Part shown: positions 1,602 to 32,878 of the stretch, piece after piece
Layout: every line of letters begins with the position of its first letter
How positions within the stretch are numbered: the stretch's first letter is position 1
Assembly (NCBI GenBank): GCA_963556825.1
Contig: CAUWAM010000005.1
Coordinates: 2,609 to 66,608 of the forward strand
Source: an uncultured Clostridia bacterium
Lineage (GTDB): Bacteria > Bacillota > Clostridia > TANB77 > CAG-508
Direction: 5' to 3'
Length of the DNA stretch: 64,000 nucleotides
Notes under the pieces: model-generated
Told to the model about the DNA's origin: nothing
Seen by the model: the letters and a program-made list of their open reading frames with translations, nothing else
Databases searched by the model: none
Position numbers and translations under genes: made by a program

Positions 1602-3782
1602 ATGGACAAAATTATAAGAATTATTGCAGAAGAATTAAATATTAAGACAAGTCAAGTTGAAAATACTATAAAATTAATTGACGAAGGAAACACGATACCA
1701 TTTATTGCACGTTATAGAAAAGAAGTAACAGGTGGATTAAGTGATGAAATTTTAAGAAATTTAGGAGAAAGATTAGGTTATTTAAGAAATTTAGAAACAA
1801 GAAAAGAAGAAATTGTAAAATCTATAGATGAACAAGGAAAATTAACAGATGAAATATTAAAAGCTATAGTAAGCGCTAAAACATTGGCTGAAGTAGAAGA
1901 TGTATATAGACCATATAAGCAAAAAAAGAAAACAAGAGCAACAGTTGCAAAAGCGAAGGGGTTAGAACCATTAGCAAATGTTATATTAGAACAAAAAGAA
2001 AAAAGAGATATAAATGAAATTGCTAAAGAGTTTATAAATATAGAAAGATTAAGTGAAGAAGAAAAGAAAAATAAAGATAAAGTTGTGGCAAATGAAGAAG
2101 ATGCAATTCAAGGAGCATTAGATATTATTGCTGAAAACATTTCAGATAATGCAAAATATAGAAAAGAAATTAAAAGGATTTGTTATAGAGAAGCATTAGT
2201 TATAACTAAAGCAAGTAAAGAAGAACCATCTAATTATGAAATGTATTATGATTATAAAGAATCTTTGAAATTTATACCAAGCCATAGAATATTAGCAATA
2301 AATAGGGGAGAAAAAGAAGAATTCTTAAAAGTAAAAATAGAAAAACCAGAAGATAAAATATTATTGTATATGGAAAAAGATATAATAAAAGAAGAAACTC
2401 AATTCACACAAATGTTAAAAGATACAATATTAGATGCTTTTAGAAGATTAATTGAACCATCTATAGATAGAGAAATTCGTTCAGATTTAACAGAAAAAGC
2501 AGAAGATAAAGCTATAAAGGTTTTTGGTAAAAATGCTAAACAATTACTTTTAGGAGCTCCAATAAAAGGAAAAACAGTTATGGGATTTGATCCAGCATAT
2601 AGAACTGGATGCAAGATTGCTGTTATTGATGAAACTGGAAAAGTATTAGATTATACAACTGTATATCCAACAGAACCACAAAATGATGTTGCTGGAGCTA
2701 AAAAAGAACTGTTAAAATTAATAGAAAAAGATAAAGTTGATATGATTGCAATAGGAAATGGAACAGCATCAAGAGAATCTGAAATGTTTGTTGCCGATAT
2801 GATAAAAGACACAGATAGACCAGTACACTATGTAATTGTAAGTGAAGCTGGAGCATCTGTTTATTCTGCATCAAAACTAGCAACAGAAGAATATCCGGAT
2901 ATAAATGTTTCTATAAGAGGGGCAATTTCAATAGCTAGAAGATTGCAAGATCCACTTGCAGAACTTGTGAAAATAGATCCTAAAGCAATAGGAGTAGGAC
3001 AATATCAACATGATGTTAACCAAAAAAACTTAGCAGAAAGTCTAACAGGTGTAGTAGAAGATAGTGTTAACAAAGTAGGAGTTGATGTTAATACTGCAAC
3101 ACCATCACTTTTAGCATATGTGTCTGGGATTAATAATACAATAGCTAAAAATATAGTAAAATATAGAGATGAAAATGGAAAGTTAAAAGAGAGAAAAGAA
3201 CTTTTAAAAGTTCCTAAGTTAGGAAAAGTAGCTTTTGAACAATGTGCTGGTTTCTTAAGGATAATAGATGGTAAAAATCCATTAGAGATTACTGCAGTAC
3301 ACCCAGAAAGTTATGAAGTAACAGAAAAATTATTAAAAAATTTAGGATTTGAAAAAGAAGATTTAAGAGATAGAATAAAAACTGATGAATTAAGACAAAA
3401 ATTAAAGACAGTAGATATTACTAAAACAGCCAAAGAATTAGAAATAGGAGAGATGACATTAAAAGATATTATAGAAGAATTAAGTAAGCCAGGAAGAGAT
3501 CCTCGTGAAGATATGCCTAAACCAATATTGCGTCAAGATGTATTAAAACTAGAAGATTTACAAGAAGGAATGATATTAACAGGAACTGTTAGGAATGTTA
3601 TAGATTTTGGTGCTTTTGTTGATATAGGAGTGAAATATGATGGATTAGTACATATATCAGAAATGAGTGATAAATTTATAAAGAATCCATCAGATTTAGT
3701 ATCTGTAGGAGATGTTGTAAAAGTCAAAGTAATAAAAATTGATAGAGAAAGAAAAAAAGTAGGATTATCAATGAAAGTTTAA
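1602..3782 (+). CDS. tex: Tex-like transcription accessory protein (YqgF/RuvC-like, HhH and C-terminal S1 domains)
   Basis: 726 aa. N-terminus IPFIARYRKEVTGGL, a YqgF-like core (GFDPAYRTGCKIAVIDETG), and a C-terminal S1 domain (GTVRNVIDFGAFVDIG...GLVHISE). RBS gaaggaagg lies upstream. Confidence 0.9.
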   Translation: MDKIIRIIAEELNIKTSQVENTIKLIDEGNTIPFIARYRKEVTGGLSDEILRNLGERLGYLRNLETRKEEIVKSIDEQGKLTDEILKAIVSAKTLAEVEDVYRPYKQKKKTRATVAKAKGLEPLANVILEQKEKRDINEIAKEFINIERLSEEEKKNKDKVVANEEDAIQGALDIIAENISDNAKYRKEIKRICYREALVITKASKEEPSNYEMYYDYKESLKFIPSHRILAINRGEKEEFLKVKIEKPEDKILLYMEKDIIKEETQFTQMLKDTILDAFRRLIEPSIDREIRSDLTEKAEDKAIKVFGKNAKQLLLGAPIKGKTVMGFDPAYRTGCKIAVIDETGKVLDYTTVYPTEPQNDVAGAKKELLKLIEKDKVDMIAIGNGTASRESEMFVADMIKDTDRPVHYVIVSEAGASVYSASKLATEEYPDINVSIRGAISIARRLQDPLAELVKIDPKAIGVGQYQHDVNQKNLAESLTGVVEDSVNKVGVDVNTATPSLLAYVSGINNTIAKNIVKYRDENGKLKERKELLKVPKLGKVAFEQCAGFLRIIDGKNPLEITAVHPESYEVTEKLLKNLGFEKEDLRDRIKTDELRQKLKTVDITKTAKELEIGEMTLKDIIEELSKPGRDPREDMPKPILRQDVLKLEDLQEGMILTGTVRNVIDFGAFVDIGVKYDGLVHISEMSDKFIKNPSDLVSVGDVVKVKVIKIDRERKKVGLSMKV

Positions 3783-3786
3783 AAAA

Positions 3787-3830
3787 ATAGGTAGGAAAAA
3801 AAGAATTGCTTTTTTCCTATCTATTTTTTA
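3787..3830. terminator. bidirectional terminator between tex and the response-regulator gene
   Basis: Hairpin ataggtaggaaaaa / tttttcctatctat (1 mismatch) flanked by A- and T-runs. Confidence 0.55.
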
Positions 3831-3832
3831 TA

Positions 3833-4907
3833 TTAGTTTTTATATCTTTCTTGAATTTCTCTTATTTCGTCATAATGATTTCTTAATATATCTAAAAATA
3901 CATCATCTAATGCAGGATCAAATTGTGTTCCTTTACATCTTTCAAATTCTGCAATAACGACATCTAATGGTAAAGCATCTCTATAAGTTCTTTTTGAAGT
4001 CATTGCATCAAAAGTATCAGCAATTGCTGTAATTCTTGCAAAATAAGGAATTTCTTCACCTTTTAATCTTCCAGGGTAACCGATTACCATCATATTTTTC
4101 GTGATGGTGTTTTACAATTAGTATAATATCTTGGAAAATTGTTGCTGTTGAAAGTATGTGTGCGCCAATAGAGGGATGATTTTTGATTTCTGAATATTCA
4201 TCATCAGTTAGTTTTGATTCTTTTCTAATAATAGAATCAGGCACTCCAATTTTTCCAATGTCATGGAATAATCCACCTATTTGAAGTGTTTTTAGGTCAG
4301 ATTCTGGTAATCCTAAGTGTTGTCCAATTAATACAGAATATGCTGCCACTCTATCTGAATGACCTCTTGTATAAGGGTCTTTAGCTTCAACAGTATATCT
4401 TAATGTTTGAATACTTTCTAGGTATGATTTTTCTAGTTTTTCATATGTTGCTGATAATTGTGAGTTTATTTTTTTGATTTCATTCATTTGATCAATTGAT
4501 TTTATACCAGATTCGATTAATAATAACAATTGGTCAAATTTATCGCTTTTTTCACAATAACCTTGTATATCTAATCTTCTTATTGTTTCCAAAGGCGGAG
4601 CTAAGTCTTTATGCCCAGTAAGCAATAAAATATATAATTCTGTATTAAATTTTCTTATTTCCTCTACTACTTGATCTCCATGAAGGGGAGTCATAATAAA
4701 GTCAAGAATTAACATATCAAAATGTTCAGTTTTAATTTTTTCAATGGCCTCTAATGGGTCTGTAACACCGGTAAAATTATATCCAGATCTTTTTAAGAAA
4801 ATAGATAGAGAATCTATAATTCCTTCTTCATCATCTACAGCTAGTATTTTATATTTGAAATTTGATTTTTCTTCTTCTGTTTGTATGTTTTGTAGTCCTT
4901 TTCTCAT
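3833..4907 (-). pseudogene. response regulator, REC + HD-GYP (c-di-GMP phosphodiesterase-type) output, split by a 1-nt frameshift at 4080-4082
   Basis: ORF 4056..4907 carries the REC domain (ILAVDDEEG...MLILDFIMTP) and HD motifs (HSDRVA, FHDIGK, HHHEKYDG). ORF 3833..4093 continues GYPGRLKGEEIP...TSKRTYR in the +1 frame. Removing one base (the C of AAT-C-GGT) restores HHEKYDGNGYPG. Confidence 0.85.
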
Positions 4908-5041: not shown

Positions 5042-6856
5042 CTATAATGGTAATGTTATATTAAAAGTAGTACCTTTATTAGGTTTTGATTCAAATGTAA
5101 TATCTCCATTGAAATGAGCTTTGATAGTAGAATATGACATATATAAACCAAGTCCTGTACCGTTTTTTCCCTTAGTTGTTATCATCTCTTTGAATAACTT
5201 ATTCTTAACCTTTTCAGGTAATCCTGAACCATAATCTTTAACAGAAATAATTAAATTATTATTTTGTTTTTCTAATATTAAGTCAATATTTTCTCCCTCT
5301 TTTCCATTGTAAGCTTGAATTGAGTTAGAAATCATATTATTTACAACTTGTACTAAGCTATTTACATCACCATTTATAGTTGTTTTACTATCTACATTCA
5401 TTTGGATATTTAAATATACTACAGCACTTTTTAATTCATGTTTCATTAAGATATTTACTCTTTTTACAAGTTCATTTAAGTCAAATGAAACATTTTCTGT
5501 TTCTGATAATGTAACAGCTTGTCCTTTTACAGCAGTTATTACATCTGACATATATTCTGTATATTTTTTTATTTTTTCAATCCATGACAGCATGTCTATT
5601 GCTATATCATGATGGTCTTGGCTATTTACTTCAGGGTCATCTATTGATGAATCATATTCTTTTACTAAGTCTGTTAATCCTTCTGCTGCTCCTGATATTG
5701 ACATTATTGGTGTTTTTAAGTTGTGTGCTATACCTCCAATTAATTGACCTAATGATGATAATCTTTCACTTTCCATTAAGGTTTCTTGAGCATTTTTTAT
5801 TTTTTCCATATCTTCTATATGTTGGGTTATGTCTTTTAATAGTATTAGTGTTCCTAAAGATGAGTTTTCTGATAAAATTGAATTTATTTCAATATGACAA
5901 TATCTGTTTATTTTTTTTATATATAAATCAAAAGATACTGTCTTTTCATTGTTCTTAACTTCTTGTAAAGCGTCTTTTATCTTTTGTAAATTTAAATAGA
6001 AATTGTTTTTCTTTAAAATGTATTCAAAATTTTGTCCTCTTAAATTTTTTGAGGATTTTATATTAAATGTATCTAAAAATGTTTGGTTAAAGTCTGTTAT
6101 ACATCCGTCATCATTTAATACTACATAACTATCTGAAATTCTATCAACTATTTTTTGAAGTGCTATTGGAGTAACTCCTAAAAAATTAAATTTAAAAATA
6201 GCTAAAGCAAAACATATAACTGAAATTGAAAATGCAATTGGAGTTGCAAATACAGTCATTGGTATTACTTTTAAAAATGAGCCTAATATATTTACTGTAA
6301 TAGGGATAGCTAATCCTAAGCAAATTAAAATTGATTGCTTAGAGAAAAATCCTGAATTTTTAAGTGAAAAATTCAATAAACGTACAATTCCTAGTATTAA
6401 TAAAGCATAGGAATATATTGTATGGATATAAAAATATGGCCCATATATTGTATCAGTAAAATAATACGAATAATTAATATAAAATAAGTGGTGAAAATTA
6501 TTTGTCCATAATATAAGTAAAGATAATATTGGTATAACAAATAATAGAAGATATGTCTTCTTAAATTTAATTTTCGTATTTATAAAAATTTGTCCTGTAA
6601 AAAATATGAAAACTGGTAAAAAACAGGTACCAATATAAATTATATTTTCAAACCAAATAGAGGGAATTGAAAAGTAATAATTACATATTGTTTGGCAAAG
6701 TACACCAATAGAAATTATAAGTGTACATACAAGATTTAAAATAAATATTATAGTTAATTGCTTTCTTTCCTTTCGGTTGGCTATATATATTAAAAATATA
6801 AATGTAAAAATAATAGAAAGAACAAGAAGCCAAAAGTCTAAATTGAAGTTATTCAT
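5042..6856 (-). CDS. sensor histidine kinase: N-terminal ~7-TM sensor region, PAS-like domain, HisKA, HATPase_c
   Basis: About 7 hydrophobic helices in aa 1-225. H-box GGIAHNLKTPI, N-box NNMISNSIQAY, G1 DYGSGLP, G2 GTGLGLYMS. The likely ATG at 6856 overlaps the NRPS stop (ATGAATAA). Confidence 0.85.
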   Translation of the reverse strand: MNNFNLDFWLLVLSIIFTFIFLIYIANRKERKQLTIIFILNLVCTLIISIGVLCQTICNYYFSIPSIWFENIIYIGTCFLPVFIFFTGQIFINTKIKFKKTYLLLFVIPILSLLILWTNNFHHLFYINYSYYFTDTIYGPYFYIHTIYSYALLILGIVRLLNFSLKNSGFFSKQSILICLGLAIPITVNILGSFLKVIPMTVFATPIAFSISVICFALAIFKFNFLGVTPIALQKIVDRISDSYVVLNDDGCITDFNQTFLDTFNIKSSKNLRGQNFEYILKKNNFYLNLQKIKDALQEVKNNEKTVSFDLYIKKINRYCHIEINSILSENSSLGTLILLKDITQHIEDMEKIKNAQETLMESERLSSLGQLIGGIAHNLKTPIMSISGAAEGLTDLVKEYDSSIDDPEVNSQDHHDIAIDMLSWIEKIKKYTEYMSDVITAVKGQAVTLSETENVSFDLNELVKRVNILMKHELKSAVVYLNIQMNVDSKTTINGDVNSLVQVVNNMISNSIQAYNGKEGENIDLILEKQNNNLIISVKDYGSGLPEKVKNKLFKEMITTKGKNGTGLGLYMSYSTIKAHFNGDITFESKPNKGTTFNITLPL

Positions 6857-9800
6857 CAATATTACCTCCGTTAATAAAATTTATTTTTTTAAAATAGTCC
6901 ATATATCTAATAATATAATTTTTATCAATATCTTGCCAATCAAATGATAAGAGTTTTAAATATTGCTCTGTAAAAGATGCATGTAATCGTACATCATATG
7001 TATAAATTAGCTTTTTACTTTCATCTAAATCATAAATTATGCCAGATAATATATCTTTTTTATTATTATCAGATAATATACCAGTAAGTAAAGATGAAAA
7101 CATATCATTAGGCATTGGCAAAATATCGTAATTTAAACTCTTTAATGTTTCAATTAGTAAAGGTATTGGTAATAATTTAGTATTATATATATGAAAAACA
7201 TTGCATTTACTATTATGATTTAAGATTTTTATAATAGCATCTGAAGCTAAATCAACAGGAGTTAGTTCTATAGAATGTTTTAACATATATTTTGGAGCGG
7301 CTCCTATTTCAACAAATGATTTAATTCTTTTAGCAAAAGCGTTATTATCAACATTTTGTTGAAATACACCATCAGAATACCTATTGGTAATATTACCTAA
7401 TCTTAATATTTGAGCATCTAGCCCATTATATATAGCTTCTAACACAATTAATTCTGCTCTATATTTTGTTGTTGTATAAATACCTTTAATTTTTTGACCA
7501 ACAAATAAATTAGTCTCATAAAATTGTTTTTTATTATTTATATTTTCAGGAGTTTCTACTATTGCTTCTTCTTTTTCACCACTGCCTGAAACACTCATAG
7601 TAGATATATGTAATAATCTTTTGTTTTCTTTTTTACAGAAATCTACAACATTTTTTGTTCCTTTAACATTAATTTCTTCAAATTCATTTTTTAATCCATA
7701 ATGTTTTACTATAGCACCAGAATTTATAATAACATCAATATTATTTTTTAATAAATTATAATCATAATTAGATAATCCTAAATTTTCTTTTGTTATATCA
7801 CCAGTAATAACTTGAATCCTTTTTAAGAAATCGTTTATGTATTTGTCACCAAAATAGAATGTTAAGGTTTGTTTTAATCGATCAACAGGATTAATATTGT
7901 TTTTTGGTCGTATTAAACAATAAAGAATTCCAGAATTTTGTTTTAAAAATTCATCAATAATATGTGAACCTAGAAAACCAGTACTTCCAATTAATAGAAT
8001 ATTGTTTACTTTAACAGGAACAATAGTTGAAAAATTATCTATATTATTTCTAGCTAATACACTATTTATTTTATTATAATCATAATTTTCAATAAAACTT
8101 ATTTCTGAAGATGGTAATTTATTAGATAATTTTTTTATTGTTGGATAATTAAATATATCAGCATATTCAAAAGAAAGACCATATTTAATAGCTTCTATCT
8201 GCATTTGAATTGCAGAAATTGAGTCTCCACCAATATCAAAAAAATTATCATTTATATTAATGTCATCTATTCCTAAAATATTTTTCCAAATTTGTAGTAA
8301 TTTTTCTTCGTTTGAATTTAATTCATCAATATTTATCTCTTTACTAGGTATGGTTTTATGTAGGTTAGGTAAAGGAAGTGCTTTTCTATCTATTTTTCTG
8401 TTTATAGTATAAGGCATTTTATCTAATCTAATAATATAAGCAGGAATCATATATTGAGGAAGAGCTTCTTTTAATGTTTCTTTTACTAATGATTCTGAAA
8501 CAGAAGAGTTAGAAACATAATAACCACACAAAACTTCTTTGCCATTAATTTCTATTTTGTTTACTATAGAGTCAGTAACTCCATCAATATTATGCATAAT
8601 ATTTTCAATTTCGCCGAGCTCAATTCTTAATCCTCTTAATTTTATTTGATTATCTAATCTTCCTAAACATTGAACCTTGCCATCAAAAGTCCATCTACCA
8701 ATATCACCAGATTTATATATTTTTCCACTACCAAAAGGATTATCTAAAAATTTAGATGCTGTCATTTCAGCTTTTCCAATATATCCAAGACCAACTTGAA
8801 TTCCTGAAATATAAATTTCACCAATTACACCTATTGGGACCGGTTTCATATTTTTATCTAATATATGAATTTGAGTATTCATTATAGGAGGTCCTACGGT
8901 TATCTCTTTTTCTCCGTTTAGATTTTGTACATTTGAAAGTATTGTAATTTCACTAGGACCATAAATATTATAAATAGTAATATCACTTGATAAAGTTTTT
9001 AAGTCTTTTACAAATTTTTCTGGTAATGGTTCTCCTCCAAACACCATATTTTTAACTAAAGCCAATGCCGAATCTGGTTCTCTATTATCATAATTAATTT
9101 TCATTAAACTTGGAGTAACAGTCATAACATCAACATTGTATTTTCTAATTAAAGCATCTAACAATTTTGGGTTTCTATGTTCAGCATTATTTGCCATTAC
9201 AACTGTTAGTCCATGGGTTAATGATACAAAAATTTCATATACAAATATATCAAAAGGTGTTGATGTAACTGATGCTAATGTATGCTTATTCCCATCTCTT
9301 AAATAATCTAAAGCTTTTGTCATTGCTTTAGCCATATTGGCAAAACCAACTTGATGTAACATAACTCCTTTTGGAGTTCCTGTTGAACCAGAAGTATAAA
9401 TTATATAAGATAAATCATATGGTTCAACTTTTATGTTTGGATTTTCACAAATTTTATTATATAATTCATTATTATCTAAATCAATTTCAAGACAATTTTC
9501 AATAGTATCTACTCTATCTTTTAAATCTTTTTGAGTTAATACATATTTTGTTTTACTATCTTGAATATAGTATTTTGTACGCTCAATAGGATAAGTTGGA
9601 TCAACATTGAAAAATGCAGCACCAGCTTTTAAAATACCAAGCATACAAATTATAGTTTCTAAAGAACGATTTGTCATAATACAAACAATATCATTTCTTC
9701 CAATTCCTTTTGATATTAACAAACTTGCTAAACTATTAGCTTTATTATTTAAATCTTTATAAGTTAATGTTTTATTATCACAGATTAATGCTATATCATT

Positions 9801-12800
9801 AGGAGTTTCTACTACTTGGTTTTCAAATAAAGATATAATAGTATCATTATTTATTGGAGAAGAGGTATTATTAAAAGTATCTATTAATTCTTTTTCCTTT
9901 GGCGTTATTATATTAGTAGTAGATATAACTTGTTCCGGTTTTTCTAATAAACTTTTTAATAGATAAATATAATGTTTTATGAAGTTTTCTGCAGTTTCGT
10001 ATTTAAATATATCTGTATTATATTCTAATCTAATTGTATTCATATCAGGTATAACTTCTAATAGTAAATTAAACTTTGAAGTTTTTGTATCTGGCCTTAA
10101 AATTTTAATGTTGTGATCATCTAATTTTAAAGTATCACTATGAGGAGTCTGATAAGTAAATACAACATCTAGTAAAGAATTAAAATTCAATTCTTTATTA
10201 AGTTTATCATATGGATATGGTTGATTTAGTAATGCTTCTTTAATTAATGTATGTGTTGAATTTAAAAATTCACTAAATGTTTTAGAAGTATCGAACATAT
10301 TTCTTAAAACAATATTATTAACAAACATTCCTATTATATTTTTTAATTCAGGCATTATACGTAAATCTGCTGGTGTTCCAACAATAATATCATTTTGACC
10401 AGTATATTTATAAAGTAAAATATAAAATACACTTATAAAAAATGTGTAAGGAGAAATACTAAATTTTTTAGAAAATTGATCTATAAGTTCAAATATTTTT
10501 TTATCAATATTTAAATTTATACTATCTCCATTAAATGATTTTATATTAGAAATTGCATAGTCATAAGGTAAATTTAATATTGGTAAATCATTATTATTAA
10601 ACTTATTTAACCAGTAATTTTCTATATTACTAATTTTATTACTATTTACAAAGTTATTTTCCCAAACAGTATAGTCTATATAATTAATATTTAGATTTTT
10701 AATTTTTTTACCATTATAAATTTTACAAAAGTCATTTAGTATAATAGATAGAGAAGTTCCATCCATTACAATGTGATGAGAATCAATTAATATTAAAGAT
10801 TGACCATTATTCAAAAAATATAGGGAAACTCTAAGAAGAGGGGCTTTGTCCAAATCAAATGGCTTTGGGAAATTATCAATTATTGCTTGTATATTATCTA
10901 TATTTTCTGTGTATGTTTTAATATCAAATTGTACATCATCTAAAACGGATTGATATGCTATTCCATCAATGGTTTTAAATATTGTTCTAAAAGCAGGTTG
11001 AACTCTAATGATTTCGGTAAATGCTTGTTTTACTTTATTCGAATCTAGTATAGTATCAATTAAAAATCCACAAGATACATTATATACTGTTGAATTTTTA
11101 TCAATTTTTGAAACATAAAACATTTCTTTTTGTGAATAAGAAAGTGGGTAATAATCTTGTTTTTGAGCTTTCCCAATATGTTTTATATCAGTTTTTGAAG
11201 AGGAAACTATTAAGTTTGATAATTCAACGAGTGAATGTATTTCATATAAATCTTTTATAGAAAGGCTTACACCAAATTGTTCTTGGATTTTATATGAAAG
11301 ATTAATAATTCCGATAGAATCTAGACCGATATTAAATAAATCATCTGTTGTACTTATATTATCACTAGGTACAATAGTTGAAATAATATCATATAATTTT
11401 TGTTCAGTATCATTTTTAGGTAAAGTTTTTTCTTTAGAAACTTTTACTAAATCAAGATTCAAAGCTTTTCTATCAATTTTTCCATTTGGTGTAGTAGGTA
11501 AGTCATCTAAATGGATAAAATATGTAGGCATCATGTATATAGGTAGCTTACTTAGTAAGTATTTTTTTAATTTATCAATATCTACATTTTCAGTTGATGT
11601 ATAATATGCACAAAGAAATTGCATATTTTCTGAATTTTGGCAAGCTACAACGCAAGATGAAATACCTTTAAAAGTGGATATTGAGTTTTCTATTTCTCCT
11701 AATTCTATTCTATATCCTCTAAATTTAACTTGAAAATCAGCTCTACCCATATGAATGATTTCTCCATTAGTATTATAATAAGCTAAATCATTAGTGTTAT
11801 ATAGAAGTTGATTTTTAATGTAATCTAAATGTATAAATTTTTCATTTGTTAAGGAATCATTATTAAAATAACCTTTAGATACACCTTCTCCACCTATATA
11901 TAAGTTACCTATTACAAAAGGAGGAAGGAGATTAGCGTTTTTATCTAAAATATAACATGTTGTATTTGCAATTGGTTTTCCAATTGTTATATTATCTTCA
12001 TAAGTTAAATCTTTAAATGTAGACCACACTGTGGTTTCTGTAGGGCCATATACATTAAAAATATTTGCATTAGAAGAATTTTTTAGTTGTATTAATAATG
12101 TGTCAGGGAAAGATTCTCCACCAACAATAATATCTTGTAATTTTTTTAAATAGTCTAAAGAAGACGTATCCTTAAAAAAAGCCAAAAAACGAGATGGAGT
12201 AGTTTGCATCATAGAAACATTATATTTTAAACACAATTTATTAAAAGCATGTACATTTTTTTGTTCGGTTTCGTTTGCTATAATTACTTTTAATCCATTA
12301 GTTAAAGAACACCAAAGTTCTAATCCAAAAATATCAAAACAAATGGTTGTTAAAGAAACCATAGTTTTATTTTTAGAAAAGTTTATTTTTTGTGATATAC
12401 CCATAATGAAATTGCTAAAATTGTTATGAGTTATCATGACACCTTTTGGATTTCCTGTAGATCCAGAAGTATATATTAAATACATTAATTGCATTGGTGA
12501 AATGTTTAAATGTAAATTATTAGTATTATTAAAATTAAATATATTTTCTGTATTAGAAATATTAATTTTTTTATAGTTTTTTGATATTAAATTTTCTGTA
12601 TTATTATTTACTAAGACAAATTTTGCATTACTAGTATCTAATATATAAGAAATTCGCTCAGAAGGATAATCCGGGTCTATAGGTAAATATGCAGCACCTG
12701 ATTTTAAGATACCTAATAAACCAATAACCATTTCTAAAGAACGATTAATTAAAATTCCAATAATGTCATTGTTTTTTATTCCAGAATATACTAAATAATT

Positions 12801-19362: not shown

Positions 19363-22300
19363 ATGAACTTAAAAAAATTATGCATCACTATAATAATGAG
19401 CACAATTTTATTTACTACAACAGTTTTTGCAGAAAACTTAAACACAGAATTAACAACAAACAAAGAAGAAATTCAAGCGAGCAAAGAAGAAGAAATTGTT
19501 CTTAATTTAGAAATTAAGGATTTTCAAGAAATTGAAAGTGGATTATACGCATATAAAGGGCAAATTCAATATGATAAGAATGTTTTTTATGAATTAGAAA
19601 CAAATAGTTTTGAAACTAAAAACATGTGGACAAATTTTAAATATAATAAACAAAATAATGAATTTGTGCTAATAAAAAAAGCAGGAACAACTAATGCAGA
19701 AGAAGTTTTACAAATAAAGTTAAAAGTAAGAAATGATGCAAAAGCAGGAGATTCAAGTATAATAATTAAGAATCAATCAACTTCAGAGGGAAAAAAAGAT
19801 ATAAGGATACAAGATTCAAAAATAGATATTAAAGTTATCCAGGAAGATAATAATACAGACGGTAATAATAATTCTGGAACAGACGATAATGATGATAATA
19901 ACAATTCAGAAAATAATAATCCCGGGACAGGAAATAATGAAAATAACAACAATTCTGGTAACAATAATCAAGAATTAGGGAAACCTTCAACAGAAATACC
20001 AAAAACAGGATTAGGAAATCATCAGACACTTATTGTTATTGCAATAGAAATATTAGTAATTATTGCAGGATATTCATTTATAAAATATAAAAAAATAGAT
20101 AAGAAAATAAAAATTAAAAACAAAAAAATAATAGGAATGCTTTTAGCAGTTGTATTTACTGTACAAATAGCAGGAACTACATATGCAGTAGTTAAGAATA
20201 TTGTACAAAAAGGAGAATTAAATGGAGATGGATTAATTGACTACGCTGATGTGGGATTAGTTGAAAAACATTTAATACAACTTGAAAAATTACCAGATGA
20301 AAATTTAGAAAATGCAGATTTAAATGATGACAAAAAAATAACAATAACAGACTTAACACTTTTAATAAAAAAGATAGAGAATAAAAGAGAATATATAGTA
20401 AAACTAGAAAATATTAGTGCAGACAATTACTATCCAAATAAAAATGAAGAAATAAAAGTATCGTTTATAGCAAATATAAACTACGAAGATACATTGATTA
20501 GAAAAGTAATAATAGATGATGTAGAATATGAAGTAGAGACATTAAATGGACGCGAATATACATTTATGATAAATGTAGGAGACAAAGCAGAGAAAAAAGA
20601 CTTTAAATTTTCAAAAGTAATACTTTCTACAAATGAAGAAGTAAAAATAGATTATGACTTTTCAATAAGTGTATTAAAAGAAAGACCATTTATGGATGAA
20701 AAAAGTTATAAACTAGAAGAAACTTTTGAAGGAAAAGCAAATATTAGCTTTGACTTAATTGATACAGAAAACAGCATTATTTCTGCACAATTTACTACTT
20801 ATGAAAAAACAGGAATAGAAGGAGAAAGTAAAGCAGTAGTTCAAACACCTATAAAAGCAGGAAACAATAAACAAGAAATACCAGTACAAGATGGAAAAAC
20901 TTATATAGTTAATATAGAAGTAGACTATAATTTAGCACCAGAGCAATTGCCAGGAAATGAATACAAAGGAGAAAGCATTATCTATTCAAAAGAATTTACA
21001 ATGAATTTAGATTATAAGTTTAAAATATCTAATATAAAAACATTAAAAGATGAGCTAGCAAATACAATCTTTACAAGAGAAGAACAAATTCAAGTTTCTT
21101 TTGATAGTACAAATGCAGCATTCGAAGATACAAAAAACAATACTTTTAAGCCAACTACAGTAACAATTAATGGAAAAGAATATCAAGTAACAGAAAAAGA
21201 TAATCATTATATAGCTACAATAGATGGAATAGAAGCTCTAGGAAATCAAACAATAACAATAGAAAAAGTAAAACTTGGAAATGGAAAAGAATTTAGTTTA
21301 GACAAAAATAACAGTGTTCAAGTTAGAATAGAAGAAAAGAAACCAAGTATAACTGATTTTGAAGCAGAAGAAAATTTGCCAGAAAGAAATATTAAAATTA
21401 AATTTAATATTGTAGATGAAGTAAAGGCAATACAAAGTGCAAAAGTTGTACTTTATGATTGTAAAAATAATGTGATCGAAAGCAAAAATTTGAGCATAGA
21501 AGAAATTAGAAGTGGAACAATAGAGGCAACTTTAAAAACAAAAGAAACGATAAAATATCTAGTACAAGTAATTGCAAACTATAGAGTAACAGATATAGAA
21601 ATGACACAAGATAAGGTATTACTAGAAAAAGAAGTTCCAGCTACTATATATGCTAATATTAAACAAGCAGAGATAGACAAAACAGAAATAGAAAAAAATG
21701 AAAATGTAAATATTACATATGAAATTGAAACTAATAGAGAGCAAACTATACAAAAAATTCGTGTAAACAGTGTAAATTATACAGCAACAAAATTAGCAAG
21801 TGGAAAATATAAAATTACAGTTAAAACTAGAAATGTACCACAAGTACTAAATCTTGAAACTACAAAACTTATATTTGTAGATGGATGGGAAGCAGATGTT
21901 ACAAATACACTACAGGTTAATATATTAAAAGAGATACCAACAATTAGTGATATAAGACAAGAAGATAGTGTAGGAAATCACGAAGTAACATTACATTTTG
22001 AAATAAATGATACAGATAAGAGTTATATTAGTGGAAAAGTCCAATTAGTAAATAAAGACCAAATCGTAGAAGAAAAAGAAATTACAATAGATGAAAATGG
22101 AAAAGGCACTGTTATTTTTACACATGTAGAAGAAAGTGTTGAATACACTGCAAAAGTTTTAGTTACATATAACAGATTTACGGAAACAGAAGAACATATT
22201 CAAAAAGACCAATTACTAGAAGAAATTCCAGTTATACTAATACATGATTATAAATTACAAGTAAGCGATTTAAAAACAGCCAATGCAAATAAAGAAACAA

Positions 22301-25300
22301 TATATTTTAATAAAAACGAAGAAATTATTTTAAGCTTTACTAGCACAAATGCCTCAAGATTTGTACCTGAAAGTGCAATAATAAATGGGAAAAACTATGA
22401 ACTTACAAGAAAAGTAGGAACAGATAAATGCTCAACTACATTACCAGGTTATAGTACAAGTGGAAAACAAGAAATAAAAATAGAAAAAATTATTTTATCA
22501 AATAGTGTAGAATTAAAACCTGCAAATGAAGAAAAAATCGAAGTAGAAGTTATAAAAGAAAAACCTATAATTACAGATTTTTCATATAATGAAGATGCAG
22601 AAAATCAAAACAAAATAAAAGCATATTTTATATTAAATGATAATGAAAATACACTTTTAAGTGGAAAAATTATTATTACAGATCAAAAGAAAAATGAAAT
22701 AAAAACACAAGACTTACAAGCAAATAATAATGAAATAATTTTTGATAAAACAGATAGTGAATATTACTATATTAAAGTAGTAGCAGATTACAATTTAGGA
22801 ACAGACCAAAATAATCTACATAAATCTCAAATTTTATTACAAGAAGAAATGGAATTTGCAATTCGTAAAATAGAAATGAAAGATATTTTAGATGTATATT
22901 TATACAGAAAAAATAGAGACAAAGTAGAAGAAGTATCAAGTATATACACTTATGAATTAACAAATACAGAGCAATTTTTAGTAAAAGTTGAAATGAAAGA
23001 CATGCCAGCTTTTTATGCTGCATTAAAAAGTTCTAGAGTAGAAAATAATATTTTAAAACTAGAATTAGAGTATGAAAATGCAGTTCAATATCAAAATGAT
23101 ATGAAGCAAGATAAACTAGAAGTAGACTATGGAACAGTAGAAAATGGCAAAGCTACTAATGATTCACTTGCAAGTTTAATAAGACAAATGAAAACAAATC
23201 CAAATGGAACATTTACATTAACAAGAGATTATGATGCATCAACATTTCTTGGTGATCACAGATCTCTAGTAGGAGCAGACATAACATTTACAGGAACATT
23301 AAATGGTAATGGACACAAAATATATAATTTATCTAAACCAATTTTTGACTATTTAGAAGGTGCTACTATTAAAGATTTAGTATTAGAAGATATTTATTTA
23401 TCTAATACAGATAATGTTACAGGAAGAGGAGCACTTGCAAACGAAACAGGAAAAAATTCTACTATAAGTAATGTGCATGTTAAAAATATGACAATTACAA
23501 CAGCATTAAAATATTCTTACTATGGAGGAATTACTGGAAAACTTATAAGCAGTACACTTAAAGAATGTAGTGTGACCAATCTTGTTATAACAGGACCACA
23601 CAATGATATTGTTGGAGCTCTAGGAGGAATTACAGGATATATTAACACATCTACTATTGAAAACTGCTATGTAACAGGTACTATTGCTGGAAAAACAGAA
23701 ATAGGAGGAATAGCAGGGTTAGTAGAAAGATATGTAGATGAACCAAGTAATATAAAAAATTGTATAACAAAAGTAAACTTAGAACCAACTGGTGGAGCAA
23801 ATGGAGTAGGTGGAATTGTAGGATTTGCAAGAAAGGCAAATCAAATTAAACTAAAACAAAATATAAGTTTATCACTAGGAAGAACTGGTTATAAATTATA
23901 TGGTACAGAAGCTACATTAGATATGTTTACAAAAAATTATGTGATGGAAGAATCTACATTATCAGATAATAACAGTTTACAAGTTAAGAAAATAGCTAAA
24001 AATGATGTTAATGAAGACTTCTTCAAAAATAAAGCAGGATTTGACGAAAGTATTTGGGATTTAAAAGACAGCAATTATGATAAATTACCAACACTTAATA
24101 ATGCAGATCCAAATAATACAAAAGAAGAACAACAAGAACAAGATGGTAATTGTTATATTCCAGACAAGGCTCGACTAGAAAAAATGCTAGAATATAATAA
24201 AAACAAGGAAATGTTATATAGTAACTTGTATAAACTAATGCCATTTTATGATGCTAAATATTTAATATTAGATGGAAGAAAAATTAATGAGGACAATATT
24301 TTAAATAAACAAACAATTAAGACAGTATTACCATATGATAATAAAGAAAACTTACTAATTGCACTTACAAAAGAAAACTATAAGACAATTAGTAAAATAA
24401 AAGTAGTATTTAATAATGATGAAACAAAAGAATATACAGTAAAATTTAGAGATACTTACGGAAATGTAGCAAATTATCAAATTAATGAGTTACAAGTTGG
24501 TTATAATTTTAATACATATATTATAGAACAAAATGCAGGTGTTGTAAGAGAACTAAGTAATTATATTCAAAACCTAGAATATGAAAAAGACTTACAAGGA
24601 ATGGTAGCTCTAGATAGAGGACATCCAGCATATAAAGTGCATTTTAATGAAGTTATAAGAACAGCAGAAAATTCTAATAATTTTATTTATAAATATTTAT
24701 CAAATTCTCCTGGATACAGTGTAACAGTAGACAATGATATCTTAAATACAGTTATAAAAGATAAATTAATTAATAATAACCAAATAAAGAGAATTCTATT
24801 TGCATATAATTATTATTCTCGTTTTTACGGAATAGATATGAATGGAACAAACTTATCAGATGTAATGCTATTTAAAGGAGAACTATACAAAGAAAATACA
24901 AAAATTGATAATTTAGTAACAGAATTCTGGAATAGTAAATGGAAAAACAGCCATGTAAATTACCAATTCTATAGAGATACACTAGCACCTAGATTTGGTA
25001 TAGAAAAACTTGGAGATTTTATAGAATATAATGTTAAAATTTTAACAGATTATGAAGATCCAAATAACTGGTTTACAGATAATTTTAATGGGCTTTTAGT
25101 AGAAGCCCCAGCAAAAGGATATGAAGATGTTGTAGATTACAGAGCATGGACACAATTAAAGAAAAGAAATGATTATATATTAGCACTTCTAACATTACCA
25201 GAAAATGCAGGATATATGATATCAACACCGGCAGCTTTTTATGTAGGATCACAAAGAGTATATATAACAGACCCTACAAAGCCAGTACAACAACAAGATT

Positions 25301-28300
25301 TATTAACTAAAATGCAAAACTTTGCAAATCAAGTAGCAACATTTTATGGAACAGCAGCAGGATTTATCGAAAGTAGATATTTTAACGCTATATGCGACAT
25401 AGTAATAGATACTAGATTTTTACCAGAACTTGGGGAACAATCAAATGGAAAAACAAATGATTTATTCCATAAGAACTTTAATGAAATCTTAAATTCATGG
25501 TCTTTGATAGGTGGAGTAGGAGCTTATGCAGGAAGCCAAAGAATCTATTTTGTAACAAACCATGCACTAAATAGTTATTCAGTGTGGTCACATGAAACAG
25601 GACATAACCAAACAGCTAGATTATTTTTTAAAAATAATGGATTTAGACCAATTGGTGGAGGAGCATCAGCAGATGGTATAACTGGTTCAGAAGATTACAC
25701 AGATGGAAATACTTCGCAAGGATTTGGAGATGGAGAAGTAAACTTCAATTTAACTTACAATTACAGTGAAGATCAATTAATAACAACAAACTTAACACCA
25801 GAAAGAATAAATTCTAAAGAGAAAATTGAAAGCTATTATAAGAGAATGTTTGAAATAATTGACTTTTTAGATTATGTAGAAGCAAAAGCCTTTTTAGAAT
25901 TAACACCAGAAGAACAGTCAAAAATAGCAGTGCAAATTTACTATCCAAATGAACCAGGAGATTATTCAACAGTAGGATGGAAAACGCTATCAAAAGAAGA
26001 ATTTGAAAAAATGAATTTACAAACAGTAGATGACTTATGGAAAAATAGAATTACTATAAAACCAGGAGTAACAGGAAATACAACGCAAACAGGAATAGGC
26101 GACTATGGTTCAGAAGGTATGTATATAAGAAGATGGTACCAACCATATAACGAAAAAGGAAGAACACATACTTTCGGATTTAAATATACAGCTTGGCAAA
26201 TGCTTGGAATAGGCGGTTATGACGGTGGATATGTTACATATTATAGTGGAAAAAGTAGAGATGACTTAGATGCTATTAAAAAAGTAACAAAAGACGATAC
26301 AATGACATGGGAAAAATTTAAGAAGCAGCGTTATGAATTAATGCAAGATAATTGGAATACAACTCCATACATAAATGCAGATGAATTATTAGATACTTAT
26401 GTAAAAGCATTGAAAAATGATGCACAAAATGGTGATAGAAATGTTACAAATAGTACAAATGTTAGAAGAAGAAATTATCACTATGTAAAACGTGTAACAG
26501 ATGACTTTAGACAAGAAGTTTTAAATGGAGACCATGGTATTGAAAGAATTTACATAACAACAGCAGAAGAATTTAAGCAAAAAATAACAGAAAATTCAAC
26601 AGGATATTTTGTATTAAATAATGACATTGATGTATCTTCTTTAACTGGAACAAATGCGATTATAAATGGATATTTCATGGGGAAAATAGATGGACAAGGA
26701 CATAAAATAACAGGAAATACACTACCAATTTTCGATTGCTTAAAATTTGCACATATTTCTAACTTAAATATAGAAAACAGTAAAATTTCTAACACAGTAG
26801 CAGATGTAGGAGCTTTAGCTAGAAAAGCAGAATATAGTGAAATTGAAAATGTAATTGGAAAGAAAATATCACTTACATCAACTAATAAACAAATTGGTGG
26901 ACTAATTGGAAGTGTGACAAGTTCATTAGTTAAAAATACACATATAACAGAAGCTACAGTATCTGGAGATTCTAGAGTTGGTGTACTTGCAGGTTATGTA
27001 GGACAAAGCCAAGTAGAAGAAAGTACAGCAAATGGAAAAGCAACATCAAAAGGAAATGCAACAGGAGGATTTATAGGAGAAATTTACAATAAAACTACAA
27101 TTTTAAACTGCTATTCAGTAGGAGAAGCAAAAGGAAACCAAGACATTGGAGGTTTCATAGGATATGTAAATAATTCTTCTATTATAAACAGCTTTAGTAA
27201 TACAAAAGCAACAGGAAATGCAGGAACAGCAAGTTTTGTAGGACAAACTATAAATAATAGTATTATTAAAAATAATATTACATTAACAAACCAATTATCA
27301 GGTTATAAATTTGATGGTAGAACAGCTAATGACAAATTTACAAACTTTAGTGGAAACTATGAAAATAAAGGAAACATAGGAACATCTACATTAACAAGAC
27401 CAAACATAGACTTTACAGATAAAATAAGTGTGGCAGAAGAAAGTGATGTACAAAGCCCAAGTTTCTATACAGGAACTTTAAATTGGGATAGTAGCATTTG
27501 GGACTTTAACAAAGTACAAACAGGAGGATTACCAAAATTAAAAAATTCAGATCCTAATGACATTTCAAGTACAGTATCAAGATATGAAATTAGAACAGCT
27601 AATGAATTTGAAACATTATTAAAAGAACATCCAGATAGTATCTTTAGTATAGAGGAAGATATTGACTTATCTACATTAAACTTAACTAATAAAAACACAA
27701 TTATTAGTGGAGATTTTATGGGAAGAATAGAGGGAAATAATCATACTTTAAGTGAAAATACAAAACCAATATTTGAAAACTTAAAATATGCTCGTATTTC
27801 AAATCTTAAAATAGAGGGAAGTATAATTTCTTCAGGAACTAAAAATATAGGAGCACTTAGTCAAAAAGCAAATAATGCAGAAATAAAAAATATAGTAGCA
27901 AATAACATAAAAGTAAATTCTACTAATAGCGAAGCAGGTGGCTTAATTGGTACAATATCAAATTCAAGTTTAGAAAATGTTCATATTACAAATTCTAAAG
28001 TATCAGGAACTAGCAGAATAGGATTGATTACTGGTTATGCTACAGAAAATACTAATATCAAAGCATCTAGTAGTAATGGAAATGTTATTGCTACAGGAAA
28101 TACAGTTGGAGGATTAGTTGGAGAAGTAGCAAATTCTTCTAGAATAGAAAATAGTTATTCATTAGGAACAGCACAAGGAAATACTAATGTTGGAGGGATT
28201 GTAGGATTATTAATAAATTCTTCTATTACAAAAAGCTTTAGTAGAGTAAGTGCTAATGGAGAAAATGCAGTAGCAGGATTTGTAGGAAAATCAACAAACA

Positions 28301-30382: not shown

Positions 30383-31774
30383 ATGGTATTTTCGAGCGTA
30401 ACATTTTTGTTTTATTTCTTACCAATTGTTTTGATAACATATTATTTAGTACCAAATAAGTATAAAAACACAGTTTTATTAATTTCATCTTTTGTATTTT
30501 ATTTTTATGGAGAACCAAAAAAAATATATATAATGATATTTTCTATAATTTTTACATATTTTTTTGGAGTGTTAATTGATAAATACAAAGGAACAAAGTA
30601 TGCTAAAATATTTTTAATATCAGATATTTGTATAAGTATAGGATTGTTAATTTACTTTAAATATACAGATTTTATAATTAAGAATATAAATTTATGGTTA
30701 ACGAACAAACTAGATTTAATACATGTAATATTGCCAATAGGAATTTCTTTTTATACTTTCCAAATGATAAGTTACATAGTTGATGTATATAGAGGCGAAG
30801 CAAAGGTACAAAAAAATATTTTTAAATTAGCTACATATGTATCACTATTTCCACAATTAATTGCAGGTCCAATTGTTAGATATACAACAATAGAAAATCA
30901 ATTAGACAATAGACAATATAACATGAAAAATTTTGCAATAGGTGTAAGAAGATTTATAATAGGTCTAGGCAAAAAAGTTATGATTGCAAATATAATAGGA
31001 AATTTAATTAGCATTTTTTCAGCAAGTGGTGAAAAAAGTGTGCTATTTTATTGGCTATATGCAATATCTGTAATGCTACAAATATATTTTGATTTCTCAG
31101 GATACTCAGATATGGCAATAGGACTAGGAAAAATGTTTGGATTTGAATTTTTAGAAAATTTTAACTATCCATATATAGCAACAAGCATAACAGACTTTTG
31201 GAGAAGATGGCATATTTCCTTAAGTACATGGTTTAGAGACTATGTATATATTCCATTAGGAGGAAACAGAGTAAACAAATTGAAATGGCTTCGTAACATA
31301 ATAATTGTTTGGCTACTAACCGGTTTATGGCATGGAGCAGAATGGAATTTTGTTATATGGGGATTATATTTTGGAATATTGCTAATTATAGAAAAAATAA
31401 TTTTACTAAAATGCTTAAAAAATACACCTAAGATTATTAACAGAATATATACACTATTTATTGTAATGATTAGTTTTATAATCTTTAATGGAGATGGAAT
31501 ATCTACAATACTAGAAAATATAGGAGGATTATTTGGGATTGCAAATATACCACTAATAACAAATGAAAGCATATATTACCTAAAAAGCTATGCAATCGTA
31601 ATTATAGTAGGAATTATAGGAGCAACACCAATATGCAAAAAAATAGCAAATAAAGAAAGATTAAAGAAAATAATAAATATAATTGAACCAATATGTTTAC
31701 TATTAATACTTGTTATAAGTACAAGCTATATTGTAGATGGGTCATTTAATCCATTTTTATATTTCAGATTTTAA
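30383..31774 (+). CDS. MBOAT-family membrane O-acyltransferase (AlgI/DltB/PatA-like)
   Basis: 463 aa and polytopic. Contains FWRRWHISLSTWFRDYVYIPLGGNR and GLWHGAEWNFVIWG with the conserved His. Confidence 0.9.
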   Translation: MVFSSVTFLFYFLPIVLITYYLVPNKYKNTVLLISSFVFYFYGEPKKIYIMIFSIIFTYFFGVLIDKYKGTKYAKIFLISDICISIGLLIYFKYTDFIIKNINLWLTNKLDLIHVILPIGISFYTFQMISYIVDVYRGEAKVQKNIFKLATYVSLFPQLIAGPIVRYTTIENQLDNRQYNMKNFAIGVRRFIIGLGKKVMIANIIGNLISIFSASGEKSVLFYWLYAISVMLQIYFDFSGYSDMAIGLGKMFGFEFLENFNYPYIATSITDFWRRWHISLSTWFRDYVYIPLGGNRVNKLKWLRNIIIVWLLTGLWHGAEWNFVIWGLYFGILLIIEKIILLKCLKNTPKIINRIYTLFIVMISFIIFNGDGISTILENIGGLFGIANIPLITNESIYYLKSYAIVIIVGIIGATPICKKIANKERLKKIINIIEPICLLLILVISTSYIVDGSFNPFLYFRF

Positions 31775-31785
31775 GAGGTGAAATA

Positions 31786-32878
31786 ATGCAAGAAAACAAG
31801 AAAAATATATTAATTTCTATAGGATTTATCTTAATTTTAACAATAGTTTTTGTTACAAATATTTTAAGCAAAGATAAAGAAATATCAATTGCAGAAAGAA
31901 GAAAGTTAGTACAATTTCCAGAAATTACAACAAAAAGAATATTAAATGGAACAGTATCAAAAGAATTTGAAGAATATGCAATGGATCAATTGATAGGTAG
32001 AGACATGTTAAGAAGTATAAAAGCATTGTTTAATTTTGGAATATATAGACAAAAAGATAACAATAAGCTCTTTATAGAAAATGATAGTATTTATAAAATT
32101 GAATATCCATTAAAAGAAGAATTGATAGAAAAAACTGCAAAACAAATTAACCAAATAAAAGAAGAGTATTTAAAAGGAATGAATGTATATTATTCTATTA
32201 TTCCAGACAAAAACTATTTTTTAGACAATAGTAATTTAAAAATAGATTATGAAAAACTACAAAACATAATAAAACAAAATTTGAAAGATATTAAATACAT
32301 AAATTTATTCCCTGAATTAAGTAGTCAAGATTATTATAGAACAGATATACATTGGAAACAAGAAAATCTTAGAAAAGTTGTAAGTGAAATAGAAAAAGAA
32401 ATGAACTTAAAAGATACATCAAAAATAGAGTATGAAGAAAAAGAATTAGATGATTTTTATGGTGTGTATTATGGTCAAATAGGAGTAAAAGTAGAGCCAG
32501 ATAAAATAAAATATTTAACAAATGAAACCATAGAAAAGTGTATCACATATAACTTTGAGACGAAACAAGAACGGAAAGGTTTATGATTTAGAAAAATATA
32601 AAACATCAACGGATAAGTACAATTTATATTTGTCTGGACCAACAGCTATAATAACTATTAATAATCCAAATTTATCTACAAAAAAAGAATTGATATTATT
32701 TAGAGATTCGTTTGGTAGTAGTATAGCTCCATTATTAATAGAGAATTATAGTAAAATAACTTTGATAGATTTTAGATATATTAATAAAGAATTACTAAAA
32801 AAATATATAAAATTTGAAAATCAAGATGTATTATTTTTATATAGTGTTCCGGTTTTAAATAGTGGAATATTAAGATAA
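31786..32878 (+). pseudogene. DHHW-family (AlgJ/AlgX/PatB-like) extracytoplasmic acyltransferase partner, split by a 1-nt frameshift at 32572-32574
   Basis: The N-terminal ORF has a signal anchor and YYRTDIHW. The C-terminal ORF (frame +1) has FRDSFGSS. Removing the C of GAA-C-GGA gives a continuous NFETKQEGKVYDLEKY. Confidence 0.8.

Follow-up and report, generated by a model that had tools for sequence, protein, structure and literature searches.

This report concerns a nonribosomal peptide synthetase (NRPS) gene and the two genes that follow it in a 64,000-nt stretch of DNA from an uncultured Clostridia bacterium (contig CAUWAM010000005.1 of assembly GCA_963556825.1; hereafter the window, with coordinates counted from its first letter). 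The gene, at 6849-14291 on the reverse strand, encodes a genuine bimodular NRPS with a reductase release domain, and it is predicted to be the first gene of a three-gene operon that continues with a seven-transmembrane (7TM)-PAS histidine kinase and then with a regulator carrying receiver (REC) and HD-GYP domains. Together with the sensor part of the kinase, the NRPS makes up an allelic cassette, and its breakpoint lies within the kinase gene. The linkage of kinase and regulator to the NRPS, and their co-variation with it, are the most informative feature of the locus, and one that a first-pass annotation of the NRPS had overlooked. We regard as evenly balanced the proposition that the product of the bimodular NRPS, predicted to be an (N-acyl) Gly-X aldehyde, is the ligand of the 7TM kinase in a pherotype-like cassette with a cyclic di-GMP (c-di-GMP) output. 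The features on which the argument turns are the following, with the basis of each call in brackets.

6849-14291, reverse strand: NRPS gene, 2,480 aa, condensation-adenylation-carrier-condensation-adenylation-carrier-reductase (C-A-T-C-A-T-R), predicted operon gene 1 (open reading frame (ORF) list, start context, Pfam, motifs)
5042-6856, reverse strand: histidine kinase, 604 aa, 7TM sensor plus PAS, HisKA and HATPase_c (Pfam HisKA_7TM, PAS_9, HATPase_c)
6161-6856, reverse strand: 7TM sensor region of the kinase, aa 1-232, which co-varies with the variable blocks of the NRPS (hydropathy, identity profiles, permutation test)
4056-4907, reverse strand: 283-aa response regulator cut short by a frameshift, with REC and an N-terminal portion of HD-GYP (Pfam Response_reg, HD_5, HD)
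6150-14291, reverse strand: NRPS and kinase sensor together, the hypervariable allelic cassette as delimited by comparison with the closest genome backbone (DNA identity profiles)

Synthetase and kinase sensor as one allelic cassette

All loci compared with the window, designated by L numbers, come from metagenome-assembled genomes (MAGs) and metagenome contigs. Between the window and L029, DNA identity is 50-80% inside the cassette and 84-93% outside it, and the comparison with L085 behaves alike. L081 and L029 have flanks that are 99-100% identical on both sides, but their identity drops to 52-80% between the start of the NRPS and about aa 216 of the kinase, and L081 and L085, which are 93-99% alike in the first condensation domain (C1), diverge from the start of the first adenylation domain (A1) to the same point in the kinase. 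These sister genomes come from different samples, carry A1 domains of the Gly (L081), Pro (L029) and Thr (L085) types, and have regulators that are 99.7-100% identical. The identity profiles place the recombination breakpoint inside the kinase gene, at about aa 200-260. Across the family A1 is the block most often swapped, and mosaics of the following kinds occur.

L009 and L011: interior 99-100% identical; divergent in A1 and in the last ~150 aa of the reductase (R) plus kinase aa 1-212
L032 and L056: interior 88-95%; divergent in A1-T1 and in the C-terminal part of R plus the kinase 7TM region
L141 and L108: interior ~94-99%; divergent in A1-T1 and in kinase aa 130-340
L141 and L123: A2-T2 99-100%; divergent in C1-C2 and in R plus the kinase sensor
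L107 and L114: interior 90-100%; divergent in A1-T1 and in a small patch of the 7TM region

Specifically, L011 matches L022 in A1 (91%) and in the 7TM region (86%), and matches L009 in C1 (100%), the kinase catalytic domain (97%) and the regulator (100%). Ten backbones are polymorphic, each occurring with between two and four cassette types, and A1/7TM pairings seen in one backbone are met again in others.

The type of A1 and the type of sensor change together. In 95 close pairs of loci neither is swapped in 71, both are swapped in 14, A1 only is swapped in 10, and the sensor only in none. All ten A1-only pairs come down to one comparison, that of the A1 codes DAQFLGGICK and DVCYLGGICK; their occurrence in one 7TM cluster was considered as a counter-example and set aside on account of a second divergent sensor block, located either at aa 130-340 or in a patch around aa 116-166. 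Partial Mantel tests and multiple regression on distance matrices (MRM) were significant for every NRPS block and thus non-discriminating, and they were replaced by block-type tables, permutation and identity profiles. When sensor types were shuffled within backbones and the cross-backbone comparisons scored, A1 type predicted 7TM type in 20 of 27, against 8.3 expected (p ~2e-4). By the same test, the adjacent C1 was not associated with 7TM type (p = 0.13), and neither was the kinase PAS domain associated (p > 0.15).

Domain architecture of the synthetase

The domains of the NRPS, all encoded on the reverse strand, are arranged as follows.

12957-14291: C1 condensation domain, aa 1-445, HHIISD at aa 133-138 (Pfam; family alignment)
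11457-12902: A1 adenylation domain, aa 464-945, code DILQIGVVWK (codes, per-domain identity, DNA identity profiles)
11187-11429: T1 carrier domain, aa 955-1035, GLDS with Ser992 (Pfam PP-binding; motif)
9885-11162: C2 condensation domain, aa 1044-1469, LCL-like, HHIVMDG (Pfam; PDB match 2JGP)
8376-9839: A2 adenylation domain, aa 1485-1972, code DIYTVGIILK (codes; family identity)
8112-8324: T2 carrier domain, aa 1990-2060, GGDS with Ser2024 (Pfam; motif)
6882-8009: terminal thioester reductase R, aa 2095-2470, GSTGFLG, T2231/Y2272/K2276 (NAD_binding_4 at 1e-47; PDB matches)

The first-pass annotation had read the domain order from core motifs and predicted a terminal reductase of the short-chain dehydrogenase type and no thioesterase, and Pfam profiles bear this out: two Condensation, two AMP-binding (with AMP-binding_C), two PP-binding and one NAD_binding_4 domain are found with E-values of 1e-165 to 1e-24, and no thioesterase domain appears in a Pfam scan of the 2,480-aa protein. 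A profile search had been named as the check on the C-terminal reductase, and the NAD_binding_4/Epimerase match at aa 2101-2353 supports it. Every motif that the annotation had quoted (HHxxxD, the adenylation sets, GLDS, GGDS, GSTGFLG and YxxxK) was recovered by regular expression, namely HHIISD at residue 133 of C1 and HHIVMD at 1172 of C2, the A3 motif SGSTGxPKG at 608 and 1633, the A5 motifs NVYGPTE and NIYGPSE, A8 and A10 twice each, the carrier motifs GLDS at 989 and GGDS at 2021, and, in the reductase, GSTGFLG at 2102 and Y2272-TTT-K2276. In 14 homologues the residues H134, D138, S992, S2024, T2231, Y2272 and K2276 are unchanged throughout, and H134 and D138 of C1 are unchanged in 28 family members.

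Organization of the operon and the state of its regulator

The NRPS ORF in full runs over 6849-14363 on the reverse strand and opens at TTG; its 2,480-aa product begins at the ATG at 14291, just ahead of which stands AAAGGGTG. At the other end of the gene, the NRPS/kinase junction reads GGAGGTAATATTGATGAATAA, with the kinase ATG 5 nt before the NRPS end and the Shine-Dalgarno sequence of the kinase (GGAGG) inside the final NRPS codons, and the two genes are predicted to be translationally coupled. The following features complete the operon.

14292-14467: divergent gap of 176 nt separating NRPS and htrA, presumed to contain the promoter (ORF map)
3833-4093, reverse strand: rest of the HD-GYP domain in another frame, 86-aa ORF (three-frame translation against L029 and L001)
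3782-3829: palindromic terminator-like hairpin in the gap between the convergent regulator and tex genes, likely the end of the operon (terminator scan)

The terminator scan found no terminator in the operon before 3782-3829, a promoter scan was uninformative in this AT-rich DNA (99 found against 100 expected from shuffled sequence), and an Rfam scan found no riboswitch or other element near the operon. The intergenic gaps beside the NRPS measure only 176, 134 and ~50 nt, that of 134 nt lying between kinase and regulator. Pfam scans of most window ORFs of at least 100 aa, the three at 61340-63849 being unscanned, found no phosphopantetheinyl transferase (PPTase; ACPS), MbtH or tailoring enzyme; together with the short gaps, this agrees with the earlier statement that no such gene is adjacent.

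The regulator (3833-4907) is split into ORFs of 283 and 86 aa by a 1-nt insertion, a C near 4082, at the GYP motif, the window reading gatggtaatCggttaccctgg and homologues encoding DGNGYPGRLKGEE at that place. These homologues measure 350-357 aa and have the GYP motif, and the sister genomes L029, L081 and L085 have an intact regulator of 357 aa. The same split is present in L078, an independent assembly from another sample that is 99.9% identical and a few single-nucleotide polymorphisms apart. With its regulator interrupted at the GYP motif, the window's lineage may have lost the output arm of the system, and it keeps an intact NRPS and kinase. By its Pfam domains, the output of the regulator is enzymatic and not DNA-binding.

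Distribution and variation of the family

Relatives of the NRPS number in the thousands in the protein database, and more than 100 of them have its length and are 54-83% identical to it. The 74 genome loci, one genome per species, are nearly all from uncultured gut Clostridia (for instance Clostridium sp. CAG:452, CAG:389, CAG:780, 26_22 and 28_17), with source MAGs from Hadza, Nepali, rabbit and mouse samples, as the predicted origin of the enzyme in gut Clostridia would have it. Likewise, 80 metagenome loci come from gut Clostridia contigs with human, rabbit and mouse hosts. Three genome loci, L019, L063 and L067, have been placed in bins labelled Bacteroidaceae, Lachnospiraceae and Bacteroides helcogenes and are probably mis-binned contigs.

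Among the 74 genome loci the kinase lies 3' of the NRPS in 73, the HD-GYP regulator is present in 70, htrA in 57 and tex in 49. A metagenome scan with the kinase alone yielded at least 556 relatives, and in all of the 80 retrieved metagenome loci with enough upstream DNA a large NRPS ORF ends at the kinase start. Altogether, the NRPS-kinase-regulator trio is kept in more than 100 gut Clostridia loci, counting genomes and metagenomes. The htrA gene opens the forward-strand region 14468-16737, divergent from the NRPS; a functional tie between the two was set aside, the link being one of conserved synteny without evidence of co-variation. In the same region, a maltose O-acetyltransferase-like gene recurs only in L029 and a YbgC-type thioesterase has a partial match only in L020, and because they recur so rarely neither is likely to belong to the pathway.

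Mean pairwise identity by NRPS domain is 46% for C1, 41% for A1, 36% for T1, 46% for C2, 74% for A2, 68% for T2 and 60% for R, so that the family appears to join a conserved warhead end, at A2, to a variable front end. Some lineages have three-module proteins of ~3,510-3,540 aa, among them L076, in which a three-module NRPS occupies the same htrA..NRPS-kinase..regulator-tex locus; most three-module versions end in Gly-like or DIFQxAGVFK codes and not in DIYTVGI.

Adenylation specificity and the predicted product

Specificity codes were extracted by MAFFT alignment to the pocket region of GrsA-PheA, for which the procedure returns its own code, DAWTIAAICK. The resulting codes, DILQIGVVWK for A1 and DIYTVGIILK for A2, are identical to those that the first-pass annotation had drawn up by eye. 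The classical Stachelhaus code for Gly is DILQLGLIWK, with which A1 agrees at 7 of 10 positions, the other three being conservative changes; close relatives in the same A1 cluster carry DILQLGMIWK, which we take to be a classical Gly code as well. Whole-domain similarity does not separate substrates (304.9 bits to LgrA-Val and 305.6 bits to LgrA-Gly), so that it is the code that identifies A1 as Gly-like, in keeping with the earlier call.

For the A2 code we know of no match, and a full-text literature search for it found nothing. Its pocket contains no charged residue; set beside the classical codes, it agrees with that of Gly at 5 of 10 positions and with those of Cys, Phe and Tyr at 4 of 10 each, and so lies about equally near to all four. 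The code DIYTVGI[IV]LK, with one DIYSIGIILK variant, is carried by 94 of 107 loci and by every one of the 100 two-module homologues in the database, and a specificity so nearly invariant is worth characterising. The A1 codes, by comparison, include across the family Gly-like DILQxGxxWK, Val-like DAF[WF]LGGTFK, Pro-like DVQFIAHVAK and the Thr code DFWNIGMVHK, as well as recurrent codes that match no recognised substrate, namely DIFQ[MIT]AG[IV]FK, DV[CAS]YLGGICK, DAQF[SL]GGICK and DMVLQGGACK. Such unmatched codes were seen in L006, L007, L008, L012, L027 and others, and two of these A1 types, whose domains are 43% identical, have pockets alike in the pattern xxxLGGICK and go with almost one and the same kinase 7TM type.

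C2 belongs to the standard LCL type, scoring 248 bits with the TycC6 condensation domain 2JGP, and C1 is much more divergent in the PDB comparison. A profile of 28 C1 family members scores 170 bits against BacC and 167 against TycC6, both of the LCL type, and 125 against RzmA-Cs and 119 against SrfA-A-Cs, both starter domains, a PDB ranking that is ambiguous. C1 thus appears to be a starter domain by its position and its conserved catalytic His and Asp, and not by sequence type. N-acylation by C1, as the first-pass annotation had suggested, is plausible: the absence of an upstream carrier domain fits the suggestion, and the profile scores lean towards the LCL type.

Among solved structures, the R domain is nearest to the archaeal PCP-R protein 6VTJ (182 bits) and the aldehyde-forming AusA reductase 4F6C (140), both ahead of the alcohol-forming MxaA (104), and the best solved match of T2-R as a unit (aa 1995-2472) is the PCP-R didomain 6VTJ/6VTZ, with 222 bits. 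The best NCBIfam model for the whole NRPS is AusA (NF047350), the aureusimine synthetase of Staphylococcus aureus, at 1,409.7 bits over aa 382-2469 only, short of the curated cutoff of 2,500. On these grounds, Gly would be loaded onto T1 and probably acylated by C1 from a donor for which no gene lies close by; C2 would join Gly to an uncharged residue X on T2, and an NAD(P)H-dependent reduction by R would free (N-acyl-)Gly-X in the form of an aldehyde.

A signalling circuit and the alternatives to it

The freed aldehyde may be the cognate ligand of the downstream 7TM kinase, which would signal to the HD-GYP c-di-GMP phosphodiesterase. The circuit would be of the autoinducer type and would exist as allelic pherotypes, in each of which one variant of the NRPS goes with the sensor that matches it. 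In this regard, molecules derived from peptide aldehydes serve as autoinducers in another system (PMC11480411). In its general form the proposal holds that, in an abundant clade of uncultured gut Clostridia, a nonribosomal (N-acyl) dipeptide aldehyde or one of its derivatives serves as an autoinducer specific to the strain, with A1 and the 7TM sensor forming matched pherotypes under balanced polymorphism and the hydrolysis of c-di-GMP by the HD-GYP regulator providing the readout; we put it forward tentatively, at somewhat less than an even chance.

Several points weigh against this proposal. The product, the binding of a ligand and the transcript are, like every functional step, deduced from sequence. 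C1 does not appear to be of the canonical starter type, and the sequence of R would suit two-electron and four-electron reduction alike. T1, C2 and the N- and C-terminal parts of R (Rn and Rc) also associate with 7TM type, so that linkage contributes to the association of A1 with the sensor, and A1 does not stand out in the Mantel and MRM tests. A given A1 code may be found with several 7TM types, and L043, L064 and L040 are discordant. The HD-GYP regulator is frameshifted in the window's lineage although the NRPS is intact, and no exporter, PPTase or acyl-supply gene is linked. Finally, the near-invariance of A2, which would set the P1 residue that bears the warhead, suits a receptor no better than it suits a conserved target enzyme, for example a protease.

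This last point leads to the best-surviving alternative, which we consider possible but unlikely: the NRPS would make a secreted N-acyl dipeptide aldehyde that inhibits proteases, be they host cathepsins, bacterial proteases or the producer's own, and the kinase and regulator would be mere neighbours or would serve in regulation, the sensor hitchhiking with the NRPS because no conserved DNA lies between them. The architecture and the gut origin fit the NRPS peptide aldehydes, N-acylated ones included, as outlined in PMC12282076 and PMC8210680 and, for ruminopeptin, in PMC12327764. Additionally, R resembles the reductase of AusA, a gene for an HtrA serine protease lies divergently beside the NRPS in 57 of the 74 loci, and a near-invariant A2 at the aldehyde-bearing P1 position is what selection by a conserved S1 pocket would produce. 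Inhibition of a protease leaves unexplained, however, why the breakpoint falls at the 7TM/PAS junction within the kinase in every comparison, why A1 and sensor are replaced jointly across 2-5 kb of DNA that is 95-100% identical, and why C1 and PAS shuffle freely whereas the A1-7TM association holds steady; moreover, a regulator that lacks a DNA-binding domain is not a classical cluster regulator. Protease inhibition and signalling are not mutually exclusive.

A second alternative, which we think improbable, concerns the chemistry. If C1 were non-acylating in practice, the free dipeptide aldehyde would cyclise to a dihydropyrazinone or pyrazinone as for AusA, and the heterocycle would be the active or the sensed molecule. 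AusA as the best NCBIfam model (1,410 bits, aa 382-2469), the AusA-like R domain, a C1 that is not starter-type by sequence and the lack of a linked acyl carrier protein or ligase gene to supply an acyl group all agree with this course, and pyrazinones are autoinducers elsewhere (PMC11480411). However, C1 is kept at full length with catalytic His134 and Asp138 unchanged in all family members, which argues for its activity, the AusA score is far under the model cutoff of 2,500, and, by chemical reasoning, the secondary amine of A1 alleles with a Pro code would suit the pyrazinone route poorly.

That the hypervariability has nothing to do with the matching of ligand and receptor, NRPS and sensor diversifying for other reasons (for example phage or immune pressure on exposed loops, or strain antagonism) and the block pattern then being created by metagenome assembly or the mechanics of recombination, is the least probable of the alternatives and a very doubtful one: sensor domains in general evolve fast, other blocks (Rc and PAS) are mosaic too and the data all come from MAGs and metagenome contigs, but chimeric assemblies joined in the conserved A2-T2 would destroy the association between A1 and sensor instead of producing it, the same A1/7TM pairings recur across backbones and samples, and sensor-only swaps are absent from the 95 close pairs.

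The NRPS itself adds to a known kind of enzyme, and, as far as we searched, its conserved coupling to a co-varying kinase is unreported: searches of the available literature gave no report of an NRPS in an operon with a co-varying 7TM kinase and an HD-GYP regulator, and searches on NRPSs of TANB77 or CAG-508 and on NRPS pherotypes found nothing relevant. If the signalling proposal is true, this would be the first NRPS-based pherotype system. The peptide aldehydes of gut NRPSs have so far been read mainly as inhibitors of host proteases; should the product be sensed by the co-varying kinase, part of a widespread family would instead be strain-specific signals between bacterial cells, and a way would open to study social behaviour and the control of c-di-GMP in bacteria that nobody has yet cultured. 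Naturally matched and mismatched alleles of synthetase and sensor, such as the Gly, Pro and Thr types in one species, make the proposal directly testable.

Other features of the window

Elsewhere in the window, the following regions were observed.

19363-29697, forward strand: 3,444-aa ORF whose N-terminal region is of the M26 IgA1-specific metalloendopeptidase type and which also has GLUG motifs and a dockerin domain; it looks like a giant IgA-protease-like surface protein of a gut commensal
30383-32878, forward strand: MBOAT acyltransferase, then a DHHW-family protein seemingly split (31786-32586 and 32555-32878), which may be a frameshift
33300-34409 and 36528-39032, forward strand: Amidoligase_2 protein, and 834-aa protein with an adenosine-deaminase domain
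~40680-53470: probable integrated mobilisable element beside two tRNA genes (40684-40757 and 40959-41031), with RepA_N, TnpV, NikA/MobC, a MobA/VirD2 relaxase, a pemK RNA motif (51535-51633) and a tyrosine integrase (52102-53469)

Comparison with known systems

The nearest relatives by description are the NRPS peptide-aldehyde family of the gut (Guo et al., 2017, Cell 168:517) and ruminopeptin (Schneider and Balskus, 2018), as outlined in PMC12282076, PMC8210680 and PMC12327764. In those accounts the family shares with the window an origin in anaerobic gut Firmicutes, a short NRPS with a terminal reductase and without a thioesterase, and a predicted dipeptide aldehyde, and its N-acylated members share the N-terminal C domain. 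In contrast, the window's subfamily occurs in uncultured genomes of the 'Clostridium sp. CAG' type with ~25% GC, has an invariant A2 code, and stands in an operon with a co-varying 7TM kinase and an HD-GYP regulator. The fit to the gut dipeptide-aldehyde family proposed in the first-pass annotation holds for the two-module, reductase-ended NRPS and the origin in gut Firmicutes; the product and its host-protease target are putative. AusA of Staphylococcus aureus resembles the window's NRPS in the A-T-C-A-T-R core over aa 382-2469 and in its homologous aldehyde-releasing reductase; unlike AusA, the window's enzyme has an extra N-terminal C domain and other specificity codes, and its score lies under the cutoff. 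With the archaeal (Methanobrevibacter) PCP-R didomain 6VTJ/6VTZ, T2-R is the only comparable part.

The genetic arrangement invites comparison with loci of another kind. In staphylococcal agrBDCA and in comQXPA of Bacillus, a hypervariable block comprises signal synthesis and the N-terminal membrane sensor of a kinase, and the kinase domain and the regulator are conserved. The identity profiles of the present locus give the same picture, with a block that covers the NRPS and the N-terminal sensor of the kinase beside a conserved kinase core and regulator, and L029, L081 and L085 have three cassette types within flanks that are 99-100% identical. As in agr and comQXP, several deeply diverged alleles exist per species and the same alleles are found across species; unlike in those systems, the signal would be nonribosomal and the output would be an HD-GYP protein acting on c-di-GMP instead of a DNA-binding one. 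In the rpfF-rpfC-rpfG system of Xanthomonas, which signals through the diffusible signal factor (DSF), the enoyl-CoA hydratase RpfF makes a fatty acid and RpfC is a hybrid kinase with a receiver and an HPt domain. By Pfam, the two loci are alike in clustering a synthase gene with a membrane sensor kinase and a REC-HD-GYP regulator, and they differ in that the synthase is here an NRPS and the kinase, composed of 7TM, PAS, HisKA and HATPase_c only, has neither receiver nor HPt.

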